Sequence record: OQ357823.1
Length of the DNA stretch: 43,449 nucleotides
Strand: one strand, 5' to 3'
Source of the DNA: Escherichia phage CY1_Cui-2023
Shown: piece by piece, positions 4,973-24,250 of the stretch
Layout of the letters: each line of letters opens with the position of its first letter
Numbering within the stretch: position 1 is the first letter of the stretch
Notes under the pieces: generated by a model
What the model was told of the DNA's origin: nothing
Seen by the model: the letters and a program-made list of their open reading frames with translations, nothing else
Database searches by the model: none
Program-made: the position numbers and the translations under genes

Positions 4973-5015
4973 ATAGTACATCACCAATGAAATTTGTCTT
5001 TAGCTATTCGTGCTG
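4973..5015 (-). promoter_or_regulatory. dyad-operator promoter (CAGCA-cgaat-AGCTA, minus strand) with -10-like TACTAT
   Basis: Dyad at 5001-5015 overlaps the last codons (STNS) of the Rha-like gene; -10-like hexamer 30 bp downstream on minus strand; precedes gene starting 4943. Confidence 0.45.
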
Positions 5016-5683
5016 CTTCTTTCCAGCAACGGCTTAATGTCGATACCAAGTTTATTCTCGATCAATCCTGCCAGTGCGTCAGTCTTCTCTTTAAGAGCGA
5101 AACATTGTGCTTCATACCTAAACCTTGCTTCCATTTCATCGGAACGTGATACCCAAGACTGCCGAGCTTCACAAGCGAGAAGGTCAAGCTTCTCGTCAAT
5201 GTTCTTATCCATAAGGAGGATTTCATTGATTCGCTGCTCCGCAACGATTCGCTGGCCAAGGTGAGCGTTCTGCGCATTAGCCACACCAAGCATCACGCGC
5301 GCTTCTTTTAGCTCATCAATACTCACCATCTGGCTGATTACTTCCGTTTGTTTGTTGATGGTGGACTGCATCTCTTTAAGCTTATTAAGAACCGCACGGC
5401 GAACAGACTTTGACTCACGCATTCCAACAAGAAGCATCTGTTCCATATTAAGCACTGGTGAGTTGATTGACTTTCTATAACCCCCTCTCCTCTCACTTTT
5501 GATTACGAAACTTTCGTAGTCAAACTCAAACCCCTCAAGCTCATCCTCTATCCTCTCAACAAAGTCATTGTGCCGAACATCAGATTCACCGGCAACTAAC
5601 CTCGCTGGGTTGATAACTTCATTCAAAAACTGATAACTGTTCATTTTTACATCTTCATTTAGTAGAGTTAGGTTCATTTTCAT
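5000..5683 (-). CDS. Rha-family phage regulatory protein (putative)
   Basis: N-terminal segment LNEVINPARLVAGESDVRHNDFVERI matches the Rha-domain pattern; track ORF begins with TTG at 5710, first in-frame ATGs at 5683/5677; start uncertain. Confidence 0.5.
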   Translation of the reverse strand: MKMNLTLLNEDVKMNSYQFLNEVINPARLVAGESDVRHNDFVERIEDELEGFEFDYESFVIKSERRGGYRKSINSPVLNMEQMLLVGMRESKSVRRAVLNKLKEMQSTINKQTEVISQMVSIDELKEARVMLGVANAQNAHLGQRIVAEQRINEILLMDKNIDEKLDLLACEARQSWVSRSDEMEARFRYEAQCFALKEKTDALAGLIENKLGIDIKPLLERSSTNS

Positions 5684-5782
5684 CTCTCTTCTGGTTTTTT
5701 CATGGCTCAAATCTGAGCCATCACTTTGGTTCCCAGCCTGAAATTTAGGTTGGATGACAGCACCATTGCCGCCACGCGCCTA

Positions 5783-5825
5783 AATATACCTAAAGATAGC
5801 CAGTTGTCTTTAGCAAATCGTGCTA
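5783..5825 (-). promoter_or_regulatory. dyad-operator promoter (TAGCA-cgatt-TGCTA) with -10 TATATT, for the Rha-like gene
   Basis: Dyad 5811-5825 read on minus strand; TATATT exactly 30 bp downstream (5788-5783). Confidence 0.5.
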
Positions 5826-5854
5826 TTTATCGACAATTTCACCATAAATCACAG

Positions 5855-6020
5855 TTACACGTAACCGATGTAACTCGATGTATACAATCTCATCCGCGGG
5901 AAATGATATACTCGCTGTTACGCCAATTTACGCATTGGTTACATTAAAATATCTATATATATCAACCTTTTACTCTTATTATTATTATTATATATATTAC
6001 TGTGTATATCATGTAACTAC
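5855..6020. repeat. intergenic control region with GTAAC/GTTAC motif cluster plus (TA)n and (ATT)5 microsatellites
   Basis: GTTACACGTAACCGATGTAAC, GTTACGCC, GGTTAC at 5862-5945; (TA)4-5 at 5953-5961; TTATTATTATTATTA at 5977-5991; CATGTAAC at 6010-6017; lies between divergent genes. Confidence 0.6.
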
Positions 6021-6313
6021 TTCTATAGAGTGTTCCGGTTATAATTTTAATATCATGTGGATTTATACAGTATTGCGCGGCAGCTATACCAATGCACCCT
6101 CAGCGAGAAACGGCATACACGATATACACGATGTTTACATTGAGCTATGGCTGGCTTGAGATGCCAAAAAGCGTAACTAGTGCCAATGCCTACACGAAAT
6201 TACAAAGATTCACGCGTAAACTTAAATCAACGATTGGCAAAACCAATTGGACTGGTTACGGTGCTGAATATATAGTTACCTCATCGAAAGCAATCAACCA
6301 GAGAGATATATAA

Positions 6314-6508
6314 ATGACCTACTACATTATCAAAGAGAAAAACAACGCACTGTTCGGCGACTGCTACTTTGGAGGAGAGGCCGGTTACACCACGGATAAG
6401 AACGAAGCAGACAGATTCGAGACCAAAGGAGAAGCCCGCGATGTACTGACCGGTTACTTCACTGAAGAAGATTTGAAGTCTGTTAAAGTAGTTAAGGTCA
6501 AGGGGTGA
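6314..6508 (+). CDS. hypothetical protein, 64 aa
   Basis: ORF directly abutting the exonuclease gene; first rightward gene after the control region. Confidence 0.5.
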   Translation: MTYYIIKEKNNALFGDCYFGGEAGYTTDKNEADRFETKGEARDVLTGYFTEEDLKSVKVVKVKG

Positions 6509-6511
6509 GTT

Positions 6512-7477
6512 ATGAGCTTTAAAGTTTTTACGCGAGAGGAGCTAAGCAACGAGGCTTACCACGCTGAAACTGAACACATCTCAGGTAGCTCGCTTGTCGA
6601 GATTATCCAGGGATCACCAGCCAAGTGGAAGTTTAAGCAGCGCAACAATGATAGCAAGGCGCTTAAGTTCGGCACGCTAAGCCACACGATGATTTTAGAG
6701 CAAGATGTATTCGAAAAAGAATACCTTCGCGCAACAGACCTTGACTCGATTGAAGGCTTAATTACAAGTCAGTCTGGATTATCATCAGCACTTAAAAAAG
6801 TTGGTGTAGCTGGCACGTCAGGTAAGGGGTATAGCGAGCTTATAGAGATGATGTATCGATCTGGTGAGGATTGGCCCGTTGGATGGTTAATTGAGCAGCA
6901 GGAGAGCGCCCAGGCGCTTGCGGATGGTAAGGAGCTAGTTAGCGCAGTAGACTATGACAAGGTTGTAGCGATGCGTGAGGTCCTCTGCAACATTCCGGCG
7001 TATAATGCGATCGTGAACAGTAAGACGGCGCAGAAAGAGTTATCGATCTTCGGTGAGATTCTAGGAGTCGGCGTTAAGATTCGAATTGACCACGTTGATG
7101 TTGTTGATGGAGCAGTTCGGATCACAGATTACAAAACGACAGCAGACGCAAGCCCGGAAGGATTCGGTAAGTCAGCATTCAACCACGGATACCTTGCAAA
7201 AATGGCACTTCAGCGTGATCTGTTTGTGAAAGCATTCAACGAGAAGCGCAAGGTTGTTGTGGGGTTGCTGGCACAGGAGAAGGTGGAGCTATACTTACCA
7301 ATGCTGTACACCCTAACTGACGAACAGCTTCGCATTGGTCGTCTCCAGTATCTTGAGGCACTTGCCACTTACAAGAAGTGCAAGGAGCTAGATATCTGGC
7401 CTGGGTACTCGAACGGCATAACAGAGCAAGAACTACTAGTCCCTGAGTGGGCTCTAAAGCAATACAAAGAAATCTAA
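6512..7477 (+). CDS. PD-(D/E)XK recombination exonuclease (lambda Exo/YqaJ-like)
   Basis: Motif IDHVDVVDGAVRITDYKTT resembles the D...D/E-x-K nuclease core; SD AAGGGGTGAG; immediately upstream of erf. Confidence 0.65.
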   Translation: MSFKVFTREELSNEAYHAETEHISGSSLVEIIQGSPAKWKFKQRNNDSKALKFGTLSHTMILEQDVFEKEYLRATDLDSIEGLITSQSGLSSALKKVGVAGTSGKGYSELIEMMYRSGEDWPVGWLIEQQESAQALADGKELVSAVDYDKVVAMREVLCNIPAYNAIVNSKTAQKELSIFGEILGVGVKIRIDHVDVVDGAVRITDYKTTADASPEGFGKSAFNHGYLAKMALQRDLFVKAFNEKRKVVVGLLAQEKVELYLPMLYTLTDEQLRIGRLQYLEALATYKKCKELDIWPGYSNGITEQELLVPEWALKQYKEI

Positions 7478-7478
7478 A

Positions 7479-7521
7479 CAGCACGAATTGCTAAAACAAA
7501 ACGGGATGACTTAGGTATAGT
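7479..7521 (+). promoter_or_regulatory. dyad-operator promoter (CAGCA-cgaat-TGCTA) with -10 TATAGT
   Basis: Dyad 7479-7493; -10 at 7516-7521 exactly 30 bp from dyad centre; leader AATCAACAACGAACGAGG precedes ATG 7551. Confidence 0.55.
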
Positions 7522-19583: not shown

Positions 19584-21167
19584 TCACCCCAACAATCGCG
19601 GATTAATGTAAATCTTATCACCAATCAGGCATGTATAGTTTTTCTCATCAAGCATAGGAACCAAGTGGTCCTTGATGCGAGTCATTACGCCAGCCTGTCC
19701 TTCAAAAGGTTTAACTTTGCGTGCTGCTTCATACAGTGAGCGAACGCCAACAACACCCTTCCCATTCTTACCTTGCTTAATCAGGATATCAACCAGCTTA
19801 TTCATTTCAGCATTATCACCAGCATGACCAGCAGCACTAGCGGACGACAAATAAGTCTTGCTTAACTCGTGGAAAATCATAACCGCTTCTTGCATTGTTT
19901 CAAGCTCAATCTCTCTTGATTTCTGCGGACTCGACCCTGCCGGTGCGAACCAGTTGCGAATAACGTGCAATACTGAGGCAATACGGATTGCTTGCTTATC
20001 AAATTTACCAAGAGCACCACGTAACATCGTGTGGGAATATTTACCGCCATCACCAAGATGCGGTTCCATTTCCTGGCGAGCTCGGTTAAGGTAGCGCATG
20101 GATGACGCACTTACTGTCAGTTTCACTTCAACTTCATTCATAATTTCATGAACGAGACGGAAATAGTCTGCTTTAAGACCATCATCAATAGCCTCGTATG
20201 TTGAATCGCCATTCTCATCAACAAACACGCGGTCTCCAAGAAATGACTTTTCACGCACCAGAAGGAAACGCTCGGAAACACCAATACCACGCGCACCAGC
20301 ATTCATAATCGCATTGATTGTTTCATCCTGAGCAATTACAGAGATGCACCCCATTGCCACGAAACTCATGTTGTTTTCTGCGTTAGCGCGGGCAATAGAT
20401 ACGTTACCAGCATCCCACGCTTTAAGTACAAGCTCGCTGTTCGTTTTCTTGGAACCATCACCGTATGTCATGCCCAATAATGAGTTGACGCTTGTTGCCT
20501 CATCCGAGATGACCGCAAAGTTACCCTGGCGGTTGTTGATTCGTGCAAGACCTTCTGGCGTAGTATCTGAGACCGGGAATACGATATCGCACAGCTTCTC
20601 GAGCTTTTCCTCTAAATCTTCCTTCTCCTCAAACAGTGAAGCCATCTCAGATGGTGACTTCTCCTGTTTCATTTCTTTTGCTAGCGCAGACAGCTTAGCC
20701 ATAATCTTTTTGCGGTCACGTTTACGCACCTCGTTCAAACGCTCAGTCTCAGCAATCATTGGCGCAATTGACAGAGAGTTAATGGCTGACTTACCAGTAG
20801 ATGGCGGCTGGCTAGTTACCACGTAAAGCGATGTTGGCTGCTGGGTTCCGTGATACTCAACAGTAAAGCGCCCTAGCATCGCAGCGGACACACAACCCAA
20901 AAAGTGCATGTATGCTGATGACTCTGGGAACTGAACTGAGCGAGCAATATTTGCCGAGAGCTTACCAACAACATCAATGTCATTGCCTAGAGATATTACA
21001 GGGTACTTGTCATTACCTGCGTCAATCTCCACAGGTGTTTTCCAGAATGATTGAGACTGCCGATAGCCATTTGCATTAATGGCCACGCGAAGCGGTGGGA
21101 GGTTGTCGGTCGCGGCAATCGCCATAACTTGTTCAACAGATAGTTTATCTTCGTTGAAATCAAACAT
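19584..21167 (-). CDS. large P-loop-containing protein of unknown function (possibly DUF3987-like), 527 aa
   Basis: Long ORF with SD ACGGAGAG; deviant Walker A-like TSQPPSTGKS and Walker B-like AVISDEAT; N- and C-terminal segments are homologous to the 160-aa ORF at 23768-24250. Confidence 0.55.
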   Translation of the reverse strand: MFDFNEDKLSVEQVMAIAATDNLPPLRVAINANGYRQSQSFWKTPVEIDAGNDKYPVISLGNDIDVVGKLSANIARSVQFPESSAYMHFLGCVSAAMLGRFTVEYHGTQQPTSLYVVTSQPPSTGKSAINSLSIAPMIAETERLNEVRKRDRKKIMAKLSALAKEMKQEKSPSEMASLFEEKEDLEEKLEKLCDIVFPVSDTTPEGLARINNRQGNFAVISDEATSVNSLLGMTYGDGSKKTNSELVLKAWDAGNVSIARANAENNMSFVAMGCISVIAQDETINAIMNAGARGIGVSERFLLVREKSFLGDRVFVDENGDSTYEAIDDGLKADYFRLVHEIMNEVEVKLTVSASSMRYLNRARQEMEPHLGDGGKYSHTMLRGALGKFDKQAIRIASVLHVIRNWFAPAGSSPQKSREIELETMQEAVMIFHELSKTYLSSASAAGHAGDNAEMNKLVDILIKQGKNGKGVVGVRSLYEAARKVKPFEGQAGVMTRIKDHLVPMLDEKNYTCLIGDKIYINPRLLG

Positions 21168-22183: not shown

Positions 22184-22402
22184 CTAACCTTCTACTGTTT
22201 CAAAAATAAGCCTATTTTTAATTGCTGCAATGACACGTCCATCATCAATGTGGCAGTAAACTGGTTTGAAGTTGTCACCAACTACGTAACCATACATTTC
22301 ATCATAAATGTAATGCTTTCCGTTTCTAAATTCCCAGGTTCCATCATTAAGATTATTTAAGCACTTAACTTTCATCATCTCATTCCTTGCCAGGGTAAAC
22401 AT
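22184..22402 (-). CDS. hypothetical protein, 72 aa
   Basis: ORF in a leftward string of small genes. Confidence 0.45.
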   Translation of the reverse strand: MFTLARNEMMKVKCLNNLNDGTWEFRNGKHYIYDEMYGYVVGDNFKPVYCHIDDGRVIAAIKNRLIFETVEG

Positions 22403-22572
22403 TCGTCACAGCCCAAGCCATCACAACATAGATACTCATCATCTGACTGGAATTGCTTAGCGAGGTCAATATCAATCTTGCCGCGCAAAACCATATCGCT
22501 GTACATCTCGTTCAACCCAATCAGAGCGCATTCCTGCTTTAGCTGCTCATACGCTTCGTCTTTAAGTTTCAT
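22375..22572 (-). CDS. hypothetical Cys-rich small protein, 65 aa
   Basis: ORF ending with CCDGLGCDEC cluster (possible metal-binding); first gene after leftward promoter. Confidence 0.45.
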   Translation of the reverse strand: MKLKDEAYEQLKQECALIGLNEMYSDMVLRGKIDIDLAKQFQSDDEYLCCDGLGCDECLPWQGMR

Positions 22573-22599
22573 ATCTCTCTCCTCGTTGTTGATGGATTC

Positions 22600-22643
22600 A
22601 TTATGGTCCCGTCGCCAATGTTTGTCATTAGCAAAAAGTGCTA
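22600..22643 (-). promoter_or_regulatory. dyad-operator promoter (TAGCA-ctttt-TGCTA) with -10 CATAAT
   Basis: Dyad 22629-22643 on minus strand; CATAAT (reverse complement of 22600-22605); leader ATCAACAACGAGGAGAGAGAT before ATG 22572. Confidence 0.5.
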
Positions 22644-22660
22644 TTCGTTGGGTTTATGTA

Positions 22661-22757
22661 TTATTGCAGTTATTGCAATGATTCATCTCATTATTGCACA
22701 TATAGCAATATTGCATCTGATGCAATGATGTTTTTGATTGTTGCAGAATTTGCAATT
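22661..22757. repeat. array of at least 7 short TTGCA/TATTGCA iteron-like repeats
   Basis: TTATTGCA at 22661, 22670, 22691; ATATTGCA 22708; TGCAAT 22721; TTGCA 22741 and 22750; direct and inverted copies within about 100 bp. Confidence 0.6.
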
Positions 22758-22829
22758 ATTGATGTGATGGTGAATGAATGGTGGATGGACTACCATACAA
22801 GTTGATTTTTATTCTGGCCGAGCCATTTT

Positions 22830-23215
22830 GCCGCATACACGTAACCGGCGTAGCGCGATGTAAGCCAACCACTATCGTTACGCGAGTTACGCGAAGCTAC
22901 GCCTAGACTTACACTATAAGTACTTAATATATATATATATCTTCTTTCTATTATTATTATTATTATTATTATTATTGTATGTAAGTCATGTAACGGGTGT
23001 TCTTCTGCTATATATATGTTTTTTCCTATCAGAGTACATATCTGCAATTTTATGGAAGAAATAGCCAGTATTGGGCAACCCCACCCAATTTATGCGTTAC
23101 AGGCGTTACCACAAACTACATTTAGCTATAGCTTGGCTAGGATGCCATTTCGCGTAACCACACCTAAAAGTTACCAAAAATTACACTTGATTACGTGTGT
23201 AAGTCGATATATGAT
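22830..23215. repeat. AT-rich control region with CGTAAC/GTTACG clusters, (TA)7 and (ATT)9 microsatellites
   Basis: ACGTAACCGG, CGTTACGCGAGTTACGCGA at 22840-22890; (TA)7 22927-22940; (ATT)9 22950-22976; CATGTAAC 22988-22995; GCGTTACAGGCGTTACC, GCGTAACC, AGTTACC, ATTACGTG at 23093-23207. Confidence 0.6.
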
Positions 23216-23246
23216 GGATTCAACCTAAACGAGAGGAGTGATAAAC

Positions 23247-23726
23247 ATGAATGAGAAAGCAACATTGGGTCAAGTGATTCGCGAGATGGTAAAACAGGCT
23301 CTAAAATCTGAAGATAAGCAATTCAGCGTTTCACTAAGGAAAATTGAAAGCATTATTGGCAGTGAAGATGGTTCCATTAAGAAGCTTAAGAGCTCATACA
23401 TCTACAACACAACAGCTCGCATGCCTGAGTTGAGAGACGCAGGTCTGAAGGCGACTCACTACTATGATGAAGATAGCGGCAAAAGCCAATTCGGCGTGAC
23501 AGAGCTATCAGATGGCAAGAGGCTGGTTATCAAACTGATCCCTGGAACTGCCAACATTGGTATCAGGAAGAAGACCAATGACGCAATCAAGGTGGAGGCA
23601 ATAACTGAATTCAAGGCTAAGATATCGAAAGTCATGCCAGACCTATCGGAGTATGAAGGTGAAGCGCTCGCAGCAGCAATGAAAGCAATTAAAGATTATC
23701 GTTTGATTATTGAGGAGATTAAATAA
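23247..23726 (+). CDS. hypothetical protein, 159 aa
   Basis: ATG 23247 with strong SD GAGAGGAG; track start 23238 is GTG; first gene right of the control region. Confidence 0.5.
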   Translation: MNEKATLGQVIREMVKQALKSEDKQFSVSLRKIESIIGSEDGSIKKLKSSYIYNTTARMPELRDAGLKATHYYDEDSGKSQFGVTELSDGKRLVIKLIPGTANIGIRKKTNDAIKVEAITEFKAKISKVMPDLSEYEGEALAAAMKAIKDYRLIIEEIK

Positions 23727-23767: not shown

Positions 23768-24250
23768 ATGAATATCGCCAGGCAAGATGGACTTTCGCCA
23801 GTCAGAATCGTAATAAATGCAAATGGGTATCGTCAGTCAACGCCATTCTGGGGTTCGATTGATACGTCAGATGTGTACTCAGGTGATGAGCTTGGTGTGC
23901 TAATTAAAATCATCAGGAAGATGGGAGTTAACGGGAAAGGAGTGGTTGGTGTCAGGTCTGTATATGAAGGAGCTCGAAAGGTTAAGCCTTTTGTTGGGCG
24001 TAATGGAGTGATGTTGCTCATCAAGGACAAGCTAATCCCAGAGCTCGACAAGATGAATGTTACATGTCTAATTGGCGATAAGGTTTATGTTCACCCCGCA
24101 ATACTAAATGAGTGTTTGGAGCCTAACTTCAAGGTCTACGAAGGTAAGCATCCTAGTAGACTACCATACCACTTGCGGTACAGCGAGGAAGAGGTTGAGG
24201 CGGCGATGGAGTTTTATCGGGAAGCTAAATTACTCCTGAATGGACAATAG
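23768..24250 (+). CDS. mini-paralog of the 527-aa P-loop protein (N- plus C-terminal segments only); upstream in-frame ATG 23726 is cut off by an amber codon
   Basis: Residues align with the N-terminus (RVAINANGYRQS) and C-terminus (GKGVVGVRS..ARKVKPF...TCLIGDK.Y) of the 19584-21167 product; the reading frame is continuous from ATG 23726 except for TAG at 23759-23761. Confidence 0.45.
   Translation: MNIARQDGLSPVRIVINANGYRQSTPFWGSIDTSDVYSGDELGVLIKIIRKMGVNGKGVVGVRSVYEGARKVKPFVGRNGVMLLIKDKLIPELDKMNVTCLIGDKVYVHPAILNECLEPNFKVYEGKHPSRLPYHLRYSEEEVEAAMEFYREAKLLLNGQ

Follow-up and report, generated by a model that had tools for sequence, protein, structure and literature searches.

Replication origins of the iteron type have a recognizable anatomy: in lambda ori and in iteron plasmids, multiple short, phased repeats for a specific initiator adjoin an AT-rich unwinding element (such features are described in PMC11447400). 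The same combination of parts occurs twice in the DNA considered here, a 43.4-kb stretch of 43,449 nucleotides (hereafter the window) that is essentially the complete genome of Escherichia phage CY1_Cui-2023 (OQ357823.1), a T1-like siphovirus (Drexlerviridae, Braunvirinae). Two long intergenic regions of this genome, region A (5711-6313) and region B (22573-23237), each carry arrays of a short repeat, GTAAC or its reverse complement, on both sides of an AT-rich core. T1 is a classical coliphage; an origin has been looked for in T1-like genomes and none has been found (PMC11447400, PMC7718038), and the paper on phage TLS reports no iteron-like repeats in the TLS genome (PMC11447400). The literature that we searched holds no description of these modules, though an earlier remark in the Rtp or T1 genome papers is possible. 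Here we document the anatomy of the two modules, their paralogy, their extreme conservation, the instability of their duplex and the lineage specificity of their repeat words. We propose that they may be replication origins, or origin-like initiator sites, that lie between divergent promoters and are bound by a phage factor, a reading that we prefer but hold tentatively, at somewhat less than an even chance.

The likeness to known origins is partial. Iteron repeats are 17-22 bp long and those here 5-8 bp and, unlike iteron origins, the modules carry oppositely oriented repeats on the two flanks of the core, number about 16 repeats each and occur twice in one genome. They are also intergenic, in contrast to iteron origins and lambda, in which the origin lies inside the initiator gene. 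In iteron origins the repeat varies between related replicons and co-evolves with its binder; here the word is likewise lineage-specific, and the binder is proposed. Two separated loci with the same initiator-binding repeats are known from phage SPP1 (~44 kb; oriL and oriR) and from satellite P4 (ori and crr), with SPP1 adding an AT-rich region. In SPP1, however, one copy sits inside the initiator gene, and the second locus of P4 is without an unwinding element, whereas both modules here are complete, intergenic and evolving in concert; the binding protein is known for SPP1 and P4 and only proposed here. Short mirror-oriented repeats beside an AT-rich tract, bound by a helicase-initiator, characterize the origins of Staphylococcus aureus pathogenicity islands and of polyomaviruses (the pentamers of simian virus 40, SV40), and the SV40 origin also lies in a non-coding control region between divergent promoters. 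The parallel goes only so far: the domain of the DUF3987 helicase of this phage does not track the repeat word, and binding of the arrays by it would be hypothetical. The virulent coliphages T4 (oriF, oriG) and T7 (primary origin) have several origins that combine an AT-rich element with promoters, and there the promoter fires into the element and the transcript primes; the clear promoters here, by contrast, point away from the core, and among the consensus sites scored none above chance points in. A final comparison is with oriC, whose basal unwinding system consists of DnaA boxes and then, within 16 bp, at least three NAN trios, with GAT as the trio consensus (PMC8287927). Like oriC, the modules place double-strand binding sites (putative ones, in this case) beside a trinucleotide run with a central A, (ATT)n being a series of 3'-AAT-5' trios on the minus strand, and this run is strand-fixed family-wide. 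Unlike oriC, the trio is AAT rather than GAT and any oligomerising ATPase would have to come from the phage itself; because DnaA boxes are absent, the likeness is an analogy only.

The central observation is that regions A and B contain two copies of one module. A preliminary description of this DNA had noted in both regions clusters of GTAAC and GTTACG pentamers, a (TA)n tract, an (ATT)n tract and then GTGTATATCATGTAAC (6002-6017) in A or TGTATGTAAGTCATGTAACG (22976-22995) in B, with a minus-strand dyad promoter flanking each region (5783-5832 and 22600-22650), and all of these are present. It had also called 5953-6017 and 22927-22995 homologous. The homology is real and covers ~350 bp rather than 65 bp: positions 5856-6204 and 22836-23185 are paralogous over 364 alignment columns at 62% identity (blastn, E=3e-18). 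The Smith-Waterman score of A against B is 52, compared with 13.5±1.7 (maximum 22) for dinucleotide shuffles, and with the TA and ATT tracts masked the score is still 24, compared with 12.2±1.4, so that the alignment extends beyond low-complexity AT sequence; the element is, moreover, conserved in relatives. No part of region A aligns with the rest of the genome other than region B. The pairing of the modules is, in short, real, statistically solid and family-wide.

From left to right, both regions have an outward promoter with an ATAGCAC dyad, three repeats, four repeats in the opposite orientation, the (TA)n-(ATT)n core, a TGTAT..CATGTAAC box, about 100 variable bases, three repeats, a block TACATTNAGCTATRGCTKG..GATGCCA..GCGTAAC (block 4), three to four further repeats and a rightward promoter (Table 1), and the arrays to the left and right of the core mirror each other in orientation where they adjoin it. 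Exact GTAAC or GTTAC pentamers number nine in the core part of A and eight in that of B, together 17 in 857 bp, where the rest of the genome predicts 2.2 (p=2e-10), and CGTAAC has eight copies in the two regions against 0.6 expected; the extended repeat consensus is C-R-Y-GTAAC. In region B, six same-orientation pairs of pentamers are spaced by 9-11 bp, compared with 0.07 expected (P<0.0005), and the repeat copies of A are more degenerate than those of B. The shared architecture claimed by the preliminary description is confirmed, with two amendments: a cluster of TTGCA-N5-TGCAA dyads (22660-22770), which it had left out, is an extra insert in B and absent from A, and the phasing of the pentamers is significant in B and marginal in A. 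Each region may be one copy of an ancient duplicated module of origin-like character, an interpretation that we favour at slightly less than an even chance. As a separate matter, CGTAAC is over-represented genome-wide, also outside both regions (38 copies, compared with 12.9±3.6 in shuffles), mostly on the coding strand of rightward genes, which may be a codon-usage effect (CGT-AAC) and not a signal.

The cores between the arrays are exceptional in their stability. By nearest-neighbour energies over the whole genome, the two least stable 70-bp segments are the B core (z=5.85) and the A core (z=5.21), and the next minimum has z=3.3; the same two segments lead in 40- and 100-bp windows (z 4.5-5.9 over 40/70/100 bp). 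The equivalents of regions B and A also provide the top two minima in T1, K50_evo33, TR2, DTL, Rtp and EC3a, and the suggestion, made in the preliminary description, of a DNA unwinding element thus agrees with the duplex stability of this and six other genomes. The trinucleotide run is (ATT)5 in A and (ATT)9 in B, and the lengths of the (TA)n and (ATT)n microsatellites are constant among the A copies and among the B copies of different genera. Across genera the A core is identical in length and nearly identical in sequence: in comparisons with TR2, DTL, Rtp and EC3a, the 150-bp windows that start at 5876-5926 are the best conserved of the genome, with a mean identity of 0.93-0.95 (best 0.947), and outrank the helicase and major capsid genes, the genome-wide identity being 0.75-0.77 for the three distant relatives. 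With the A core as the most conserved 150 bp and the pair present in every complete genome of the family examined, a conserved function of the modules, which the preliminary description had suggested, is strongly supported. Two observations on individual cores may be added. The B core of Rtp (46350-46219/1-300, compared with window positions 22836-23000) is A-like, reading CAACC..ATATATATTACT.TGTATATCATGTA, and its left array is degenerate (GTTAT); the two cores would thus be interchangeable, and the pattern suggests gene conversion between the paralogous modules. A perfect consensus site for integration host factor (IHF), TATCAACCTTTTA, lies at 5960-5972 in the A core, one of three in the genome on both strands, and the B core has none.

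How widespread is the pair? It is present in TR2, DTL, Rtp, EC3a, AugustePiccard, T1, Klebsiella phage K50_evo33 and Erwinia phage Snitter, i.e. in every complete Drexlerviridae genome examined, with Snitter judged from its two regions alone; the record of KpV2811 lacks the region, and that of Salmonella phage 36 stops before region B. T1 has both regions, with repeats of the GTAAC/ATTAC type and TA-rich cores that align through GTTGTATAKCGTGT (score 35, compared with 13.9±1.7 for mononucleotide shuffles). The two regions of K50_evo33 align with each other over 251 bp (73%, E=1e-32) and those of Snitter over 172 bp (68%, E=3e-13), and Snitter has a different repeat, GTTATAG/CTATAAC (TATAAC arrays), in the same arrangement in both of its copies. 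A wider sample came from IMG/VR, from which 80 recE-bearing loci were retrieved and the 68 with full flanks analysed. The least stable 70 bp lie upstream of recE in all 68, and the distance from core to recE is 280-283 bp in 37 of them. The (TA)n tract reaches at least three units in 62 of the 68 cores, and (ATT)n reaches at least three units on the recE strand in 45, with no such run in the other 402,764 bases of the loci. In these loci the copies that adjoin the core are again in mirror orientation, and the enriched flanking word differs by lineage (GTAAC; AACAA/GAACA/GAAAC; GTAAGA, the word of Webervirus; GGGACAA; ATTAC). A pattern search of IMG/VR with block 4 gave eight true copies and three chance matches in coding DNA (L011, L012 and L014), and no copies of the module that could act as satellites or decoys were found in E. 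coli chromosomes or plasmids.

What might bind such arrays? Wherever both copies of a genome could be read, they have the same repeat word or align significantly; the word shifts by lineage and yet is common to A and B or aligned between them, for which a co-evolving, phage-encoded binder would be the natural explanation. The repeats resemble half-sites of the OmpR/CpxR type. A host protein was considered as the binder and is made unlikely by the lineage-specific repeat words. A second candidate is encoded by the phage itself. The DUF3987 protein (PHROG annotation 'DNA helicase'; 527 amino acids; 19584-21167, minus strand) belongs to the leftward operon of region B and carries a plausible DNA-binding domain, its C-terminal domain being modelled as a winged helix, a generic fold. 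As the reader of the repeats, this C-terminal domain was rejected: in an alignment of Braunvirinae, T1 and K50 proteins it shows no simple co-variation with the repeat word. The same domain recurs in a small protein of 160 amino acids (23768-24250, plus strand), encoded by the second gene to the right of region B, which is an internally deleted paralogue of the helicase without the ATPase core. It matches the last 80 residues of the helicase at 61% over 79 residues and the N-terminus, of which it keeps about 36 residues, at 46% over 56 residues, and its family has at least 285 members, mostly of 174 amino acids.

If the modules are origins, how would they work? Short, lineage-specific repeats (here YGTAAC), spaced by about one helical turn, flank in opposite orientations the core that melts most easily, and a phage-encoded, sequence-specific protein would bind these arrays at both loci. 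By twin-domain reasoning, negative supercoiling would be added at the core by the divergent transcription that starts at the flanking promoters. Once opened, the core would let in the replicative helicase and primase of the phage, and the host polymerase would start. Mirror-oriented arrays that bracket the most meltable DNA are the arrangement needed to open DNA and to load two helicases, and it is from such features of the sequence that we infer protein binding, melting and the start of replication at the modules. Because some of these binding sites overlap the rightward promoter in region B, the array-bound complex would probably also feed back on early transcription.

Several observations weigh against an origin. 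The phasing of the repeats in A is marginal under the same relaxed motif (one pair, P=0.07), and the pentamer columns are conserved between A and B at 0.60, compared with 0.47 for the other columns (p=0.13). T1 has GTAAC-like repeats and yet the most divergent helicase C-terminal domain. There are no conserved DnaA boxes in either region (a TGTGGAT near 6055 is not conserved among the A copies) and no GATC sites in either; host-factor sites (DnaA boxes, IHF sites, GATC clusters) are common at iteron origins, but they are not obligatory. Finally, control of transcription would account at least as well for the stereotyped distance from core to recE and for a distal array that overlaps the -35 element in region B, and a repressor or an architectural complex could also make use of numerous sites distributed over 350 bp.

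These last points lead to the strongest alternative, that the phased repeats on either side of each divergent promoter pair are covered by a phage regulator, which would turn early transcription off or on; the AT-rich core might then be a hinge, flexible or sensitive to supercoiling, an UP-like element or a promoter of unconventional type. We regard this as less likely than not, and as the main rival. Both modules sit exactly between divergent promoters; the distal array of B overlaps the -35 element of TTGATT-17-TATGAT; the core-recE distance found in 37 of the 68 loci suggests coupling to a promoter; the same regions hold other dyad operators (TAGCA-N5-TGCTA, TTGCA-N5-TGCAA, ATTGG-N5-CCAAT); and lineage-specific words would be expected of a regulator co-evolving with its operator no less than of an initiator with its iterons. 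The cores themselves, however, do not look like promoters. Consensus sigma-70 sites inside them are not above chance (6 compared with 3.2±1.5 in shuffles, and 5 compared with 3.8±2.0), and a weak plus-strand candidate in A, TTTACT-18-TATATT, has no counterpart in B. Clear promoters are confined to the outer edges of the two regions and point outwards, from which it follows that the shared core is not simply a pair of promoters. Non-consensus promoters that depend on an activator would escape such a count. Bidirectional promoter control, which the preliminary description also suggested, and an origin are both candidate functions of the modules. Promoter control usually involves fewer sites and less meltable DNA than these modules contain: about 16 sites in 350 bp and the two most meltable segments of the genome (z >5, seven genomes) exceed it, and it is not obvious what a strand-fixed (ATT)n whose length does not vary would do in repression. 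Both readings may hold together; iteron origins commonly double as operators.

The dyads at the edges of the regions deserve separate mention. The minus-strand sequences AAATAGCACGATTTGCTAAAG (5808-5832) and GAATAGCACTTTTTGCTAATG (22626-22650) match a 21-nucleotide repeat, aaATAGCACnnnTTGnTAAAA, that has been described for TLS (PMC11447400) and is also reported for T1 and Rtp. In the window this repeat lies on the leftward promoters of both regions (5811-5825 and 22629-22643) and at about 13 other intergenic sites, and it only flanks the module; the words of the shared core, i.e. the GTAAC arrays, (TA)n, (ATT)n and block 4, differ from it. The 15 intergenic dyads of the TAGCA-N5-TGCTA type (ATAGCAC..TGCTAAA), those at the edges of A and B included, lie about 30 bp upstream of TATAAT-like hexamers, and their centre near -42 is the position of a class II activator site. 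The perfect dyad ATTGG-N5-CCAAT at 6233-6247 has the geometry of the TAGCA and TTGCA dyads and only one other near-copy in the genome, at 35545, and it may represent a third type of operator.

Packaging offers another possible function. The T1 packaging (pac) site has been reported within the untranslated region equivalent to region B (PMC7718038), and several GenBank records open in or next to this region. Could the shared module be pac, or a site at which a nuclease makes the break that starts RecE/Erf recombination-dependent replication? Repeat arrays that flank a central site do resemble the pac sites of P1 and SPP1, and region A directly precedes recE-erf-ssb. The ends of the records point elsewhere, however: those of T1 and Rtp begin, and that of Sf12 ends, inside the equivalent of the TTGCA cluster, which belongs to region B, is absent from A and lies outside the shared core. 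With the record ends in this cluster and one pac placed by the literature in the untranslated region that contains it, the shared core is unlikely to act as pac. From two pac-like modules at a distance of 17 kb one would also expect two packaging series, whereas a study of TLS reports a single submolar pac-HindIII fragment, and nothing ties the module to any phage nuclease. We consider a packaging or recombination site improbable as an account of the module. The TTGCA cluster itself, in which all three perfect TTGCA-N5-TGCAA copies of the genome occur, may be a candidate recognition site for the terminase (pac) or an early operator.

A product encoded within the shared part is the least probable of the alternatives, and we give it very little weight. 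Two open reading frames (ORFs), 6092-6313 (73 amino acids) and 23016-23228, share a reading frame through 'TLSYSW..MP..VT', and of 12 sequences 11 keep this frame open through block 4. In relatives, moreover, a hypothetical protein of 135-143 amino acids is annotated that fuses the non-coding stretch to the real 64-amino-acid gene (phrog_35664; Ec3a_41, L008 26617-27048; TR2, L005 21630-22037), and phrog_35664 appears to reflect such fused annotations in close relatives. Against a small protein, there is no excess of third-position substitutions: over codon positions 1/2/3 in five genomes, ORF 6092-6313 has 34/37/27, compared with 9/7/40 in the adjacent real gene 6314-6508. The same ORF has an in-frame stop in DTL, has no conserved start codon (the ATG is replaced in EC3a) and has no Pfam match, and for the ORF of the B copy PHROG gives no match, and its frame is interrupted in DTL, AugustePiccard and EC3a. 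On the codon-position statistics and the DTL stop, a small protein in the shared right half was rejected. A structured RNA was also rejected: Rfam, searched over the whole window at the gathering threshold, matches only a tRNA-Arg and nothing in the two regions, and RNAalifold on ten A and B copies, plus strand only, gives -1.6 kcal/mol with no compensatory or covarying pair. ORFs inside these regions are recurrently mis-annotated, and the annotation of K50_evo33, too, places several tiny ORFs within the equivalents of regions A and B.

Returning to the origin reading, one can assemble the pieces into a single two-site system of replication control specific to the Drexlerviridae, which we offer as a long shot. 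The DUF3987 ATPase would be anchored on the repeats by its winged helix or by a partner, would oligomerise in 3-nt steps along the strand-fixed (ATT)n and would melt the core. Region B, which neighbours pac and the helicase operon, would be the first to fire; region A, at the head of recE-erf-ssb, would be a second origin, or a roadblock that converts theta replication into recombination-driven synthesis of concatemers, and the 160-amino-acid protein would compete for the sites as a timer. Such a system would be a phage-encoded counterpart of the DnaA-box/DnaA-trio system.

Whatever the function, the modules provide two precise, family-wide candidate loci with defined parts (arrays, (ATT)n/(TA)n core and flanking promoters), each of which can be deleted, swapped between lineages or cloned, so that the question of the origin becomes directly testable. 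The iteron-plus-unwinding-element origin is a known type, to which the modules would add a case in a classical phage family, a prospect that we rate a little below an even proposition. Should they be origins, the lineage-specific repeats would be a ready-made set of orthogonal origin/initiator pairs, and it would be explained why non-coding stretches outrank the capsid gene in conservation. If they are transcription switches instead, the early control circuit would be defined for a family of phages that are notorious laboratory contaminants and common candidates for therapy.

Table 1. Sequence features of regions A and B in the window; promoters are predictions, and positions of dyads of the TAGCA type are given for the whole window.
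Feature	Position	Strand	Description
Leftward promoter A	5783-5832	-	dyad TAGCA-N5-TGCTA (5811-5825) and AAGACA-16-TATATT; member of the T1-family 21-nt repeat aaATAGCACnnnTTGnTAAAA
Left array 1 of A	5854-5885	+	GTTAC/ACGTAAC, GTAAC, GTATAC; 9-10 bp spacing; invariant in six A-type sequences
Left array 2 of A, opposite orientation	5901-5942	+	ATATAC, GTTAC, TTTAC, GTTAC; 10-11 bp spacing
AT-rich core A	5939-6009	.	(TA)4 and (ATT)n; 86% AT; z 5.21, second least stable 70 bp
Conserved box GTGTATATCATGTAAC	6002-6017	+	directly right of A core; related forms in region B, T1 and Webervirus (TGTATAKC)
Right array of A	6113-6139	+	CATACAC, TATACAC, GTTTACA; 9-11 bp spacing
Block 4 of A	6140-6177	+	TTGAGCTATGGCTGG..GATGCCA..GCGTAAC; AGCTATRGCT palindrome; kept in all Braunvirinae A and B copies
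Distal array of A	6189-6223	+	CTACAC, ATTACA, ATTCAC, GCGTAAAC
Rightward promoter A	6233-6276	+	dyad ATTGG-N5-CCAAT (6233-6247), then TGGACT-17-TATAGT; predicted to drive the 64-aa gene and recE-erf-ssb
Leftward promoter B	22600-22650	-	dyad TAGCA-N5-TGCTA (22629-22643) and ATGACA-17-CATAAT
B-specific dyad cluster	22660-22770	.	4-5 dyads of 15 bp, TTGCA-N5-TGCAA, spaced 30, 17, 30 bp
Left array 1 of B	22838-22866	+	GTAAC, GTAGC, GTAAG; 9-10 bp spacing
Left array 2 of B, opposite orientation	22876-22912	+	GTTAC, GTTAC, GCTAC, CTTAC; 9-12 bp spacing
AT-rich core B	22914-22984	.	(TA)7 and (ATT)9; 89% AT; z 5.85, least stable 70 bp
Conserved box TGTATGTAAGTCATGTAACG	22976-22995	+	inverted copy of the GTTAC-N4-GTTAC pairs at 22876-22890 and 23095-23109
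Right array of B	23095-23120	+	GTTAC, GTTAC, ACTAC; 9-10 bp spacing
Block 4 of B	23116-23158	+	CTACATTTAGCTATAGCTTGG..GATGCCA..GCGTAAC
Distal array of B	23170-23215	+	GTTAC, ATTAC, ATTAC at 11 bp spacing, then GTAAG; overlaps -35 of rightward promoter
Rightward promoter B	23187-23215	+	TTGATT-17-TATGAT; predicted to drive the DUF7174 gene
TAGCA-N5-TGCTA-type dyads	4684, 5811, 7479, 10210, 11733, 14224, 15295, 16564, 17774, 21819, 22629, 24248, 25134, 26821, 36380		

As to their setting, region A lies between genes 5000-5710 (minus strand) and 6314-6508 (plus strand) and region B between genes 22375-22572 (minus strand) and 23238-23726 (plus strand), with no real gene inside either. Region A has an anti-repressor-like gene on one side and, on the other, the 64-amino-acid gene followed by recE-erf-ssb, which it heads; region B heads, to its left, small early genes that run on to the DUF3987 helicase and, to its right, the DUF7174 gene, towards the terminase. 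GC skew indicates three points of transcription divergence in the genome, and long gene-free gaps occur at two of them only; as a marker of the origin the skew was discarded as uninformative, because it tracks the direction of transcription at all three points. The window is collinear with Rtp, DTL, EC3a and AugustePiccard, and it shares 98-99% of its bases in region B with the Escherichia phages TR2, TR3 and Rao1. Overall, TR2 is 97.9% identical to the window but falls to 69-91% across region A, the 64-amino-acid gene and recE (~5000-7500), a drop that points to a recombination patch with an end in or near the conserved A core. Lastly, at the left edge of region A a hairpin with an 8-bp stem, ATGGCTCA-AATC-TGAGCCAT (5702-5721), spans the start codon of the leftward anti-repressor-like gene (5000-5710).

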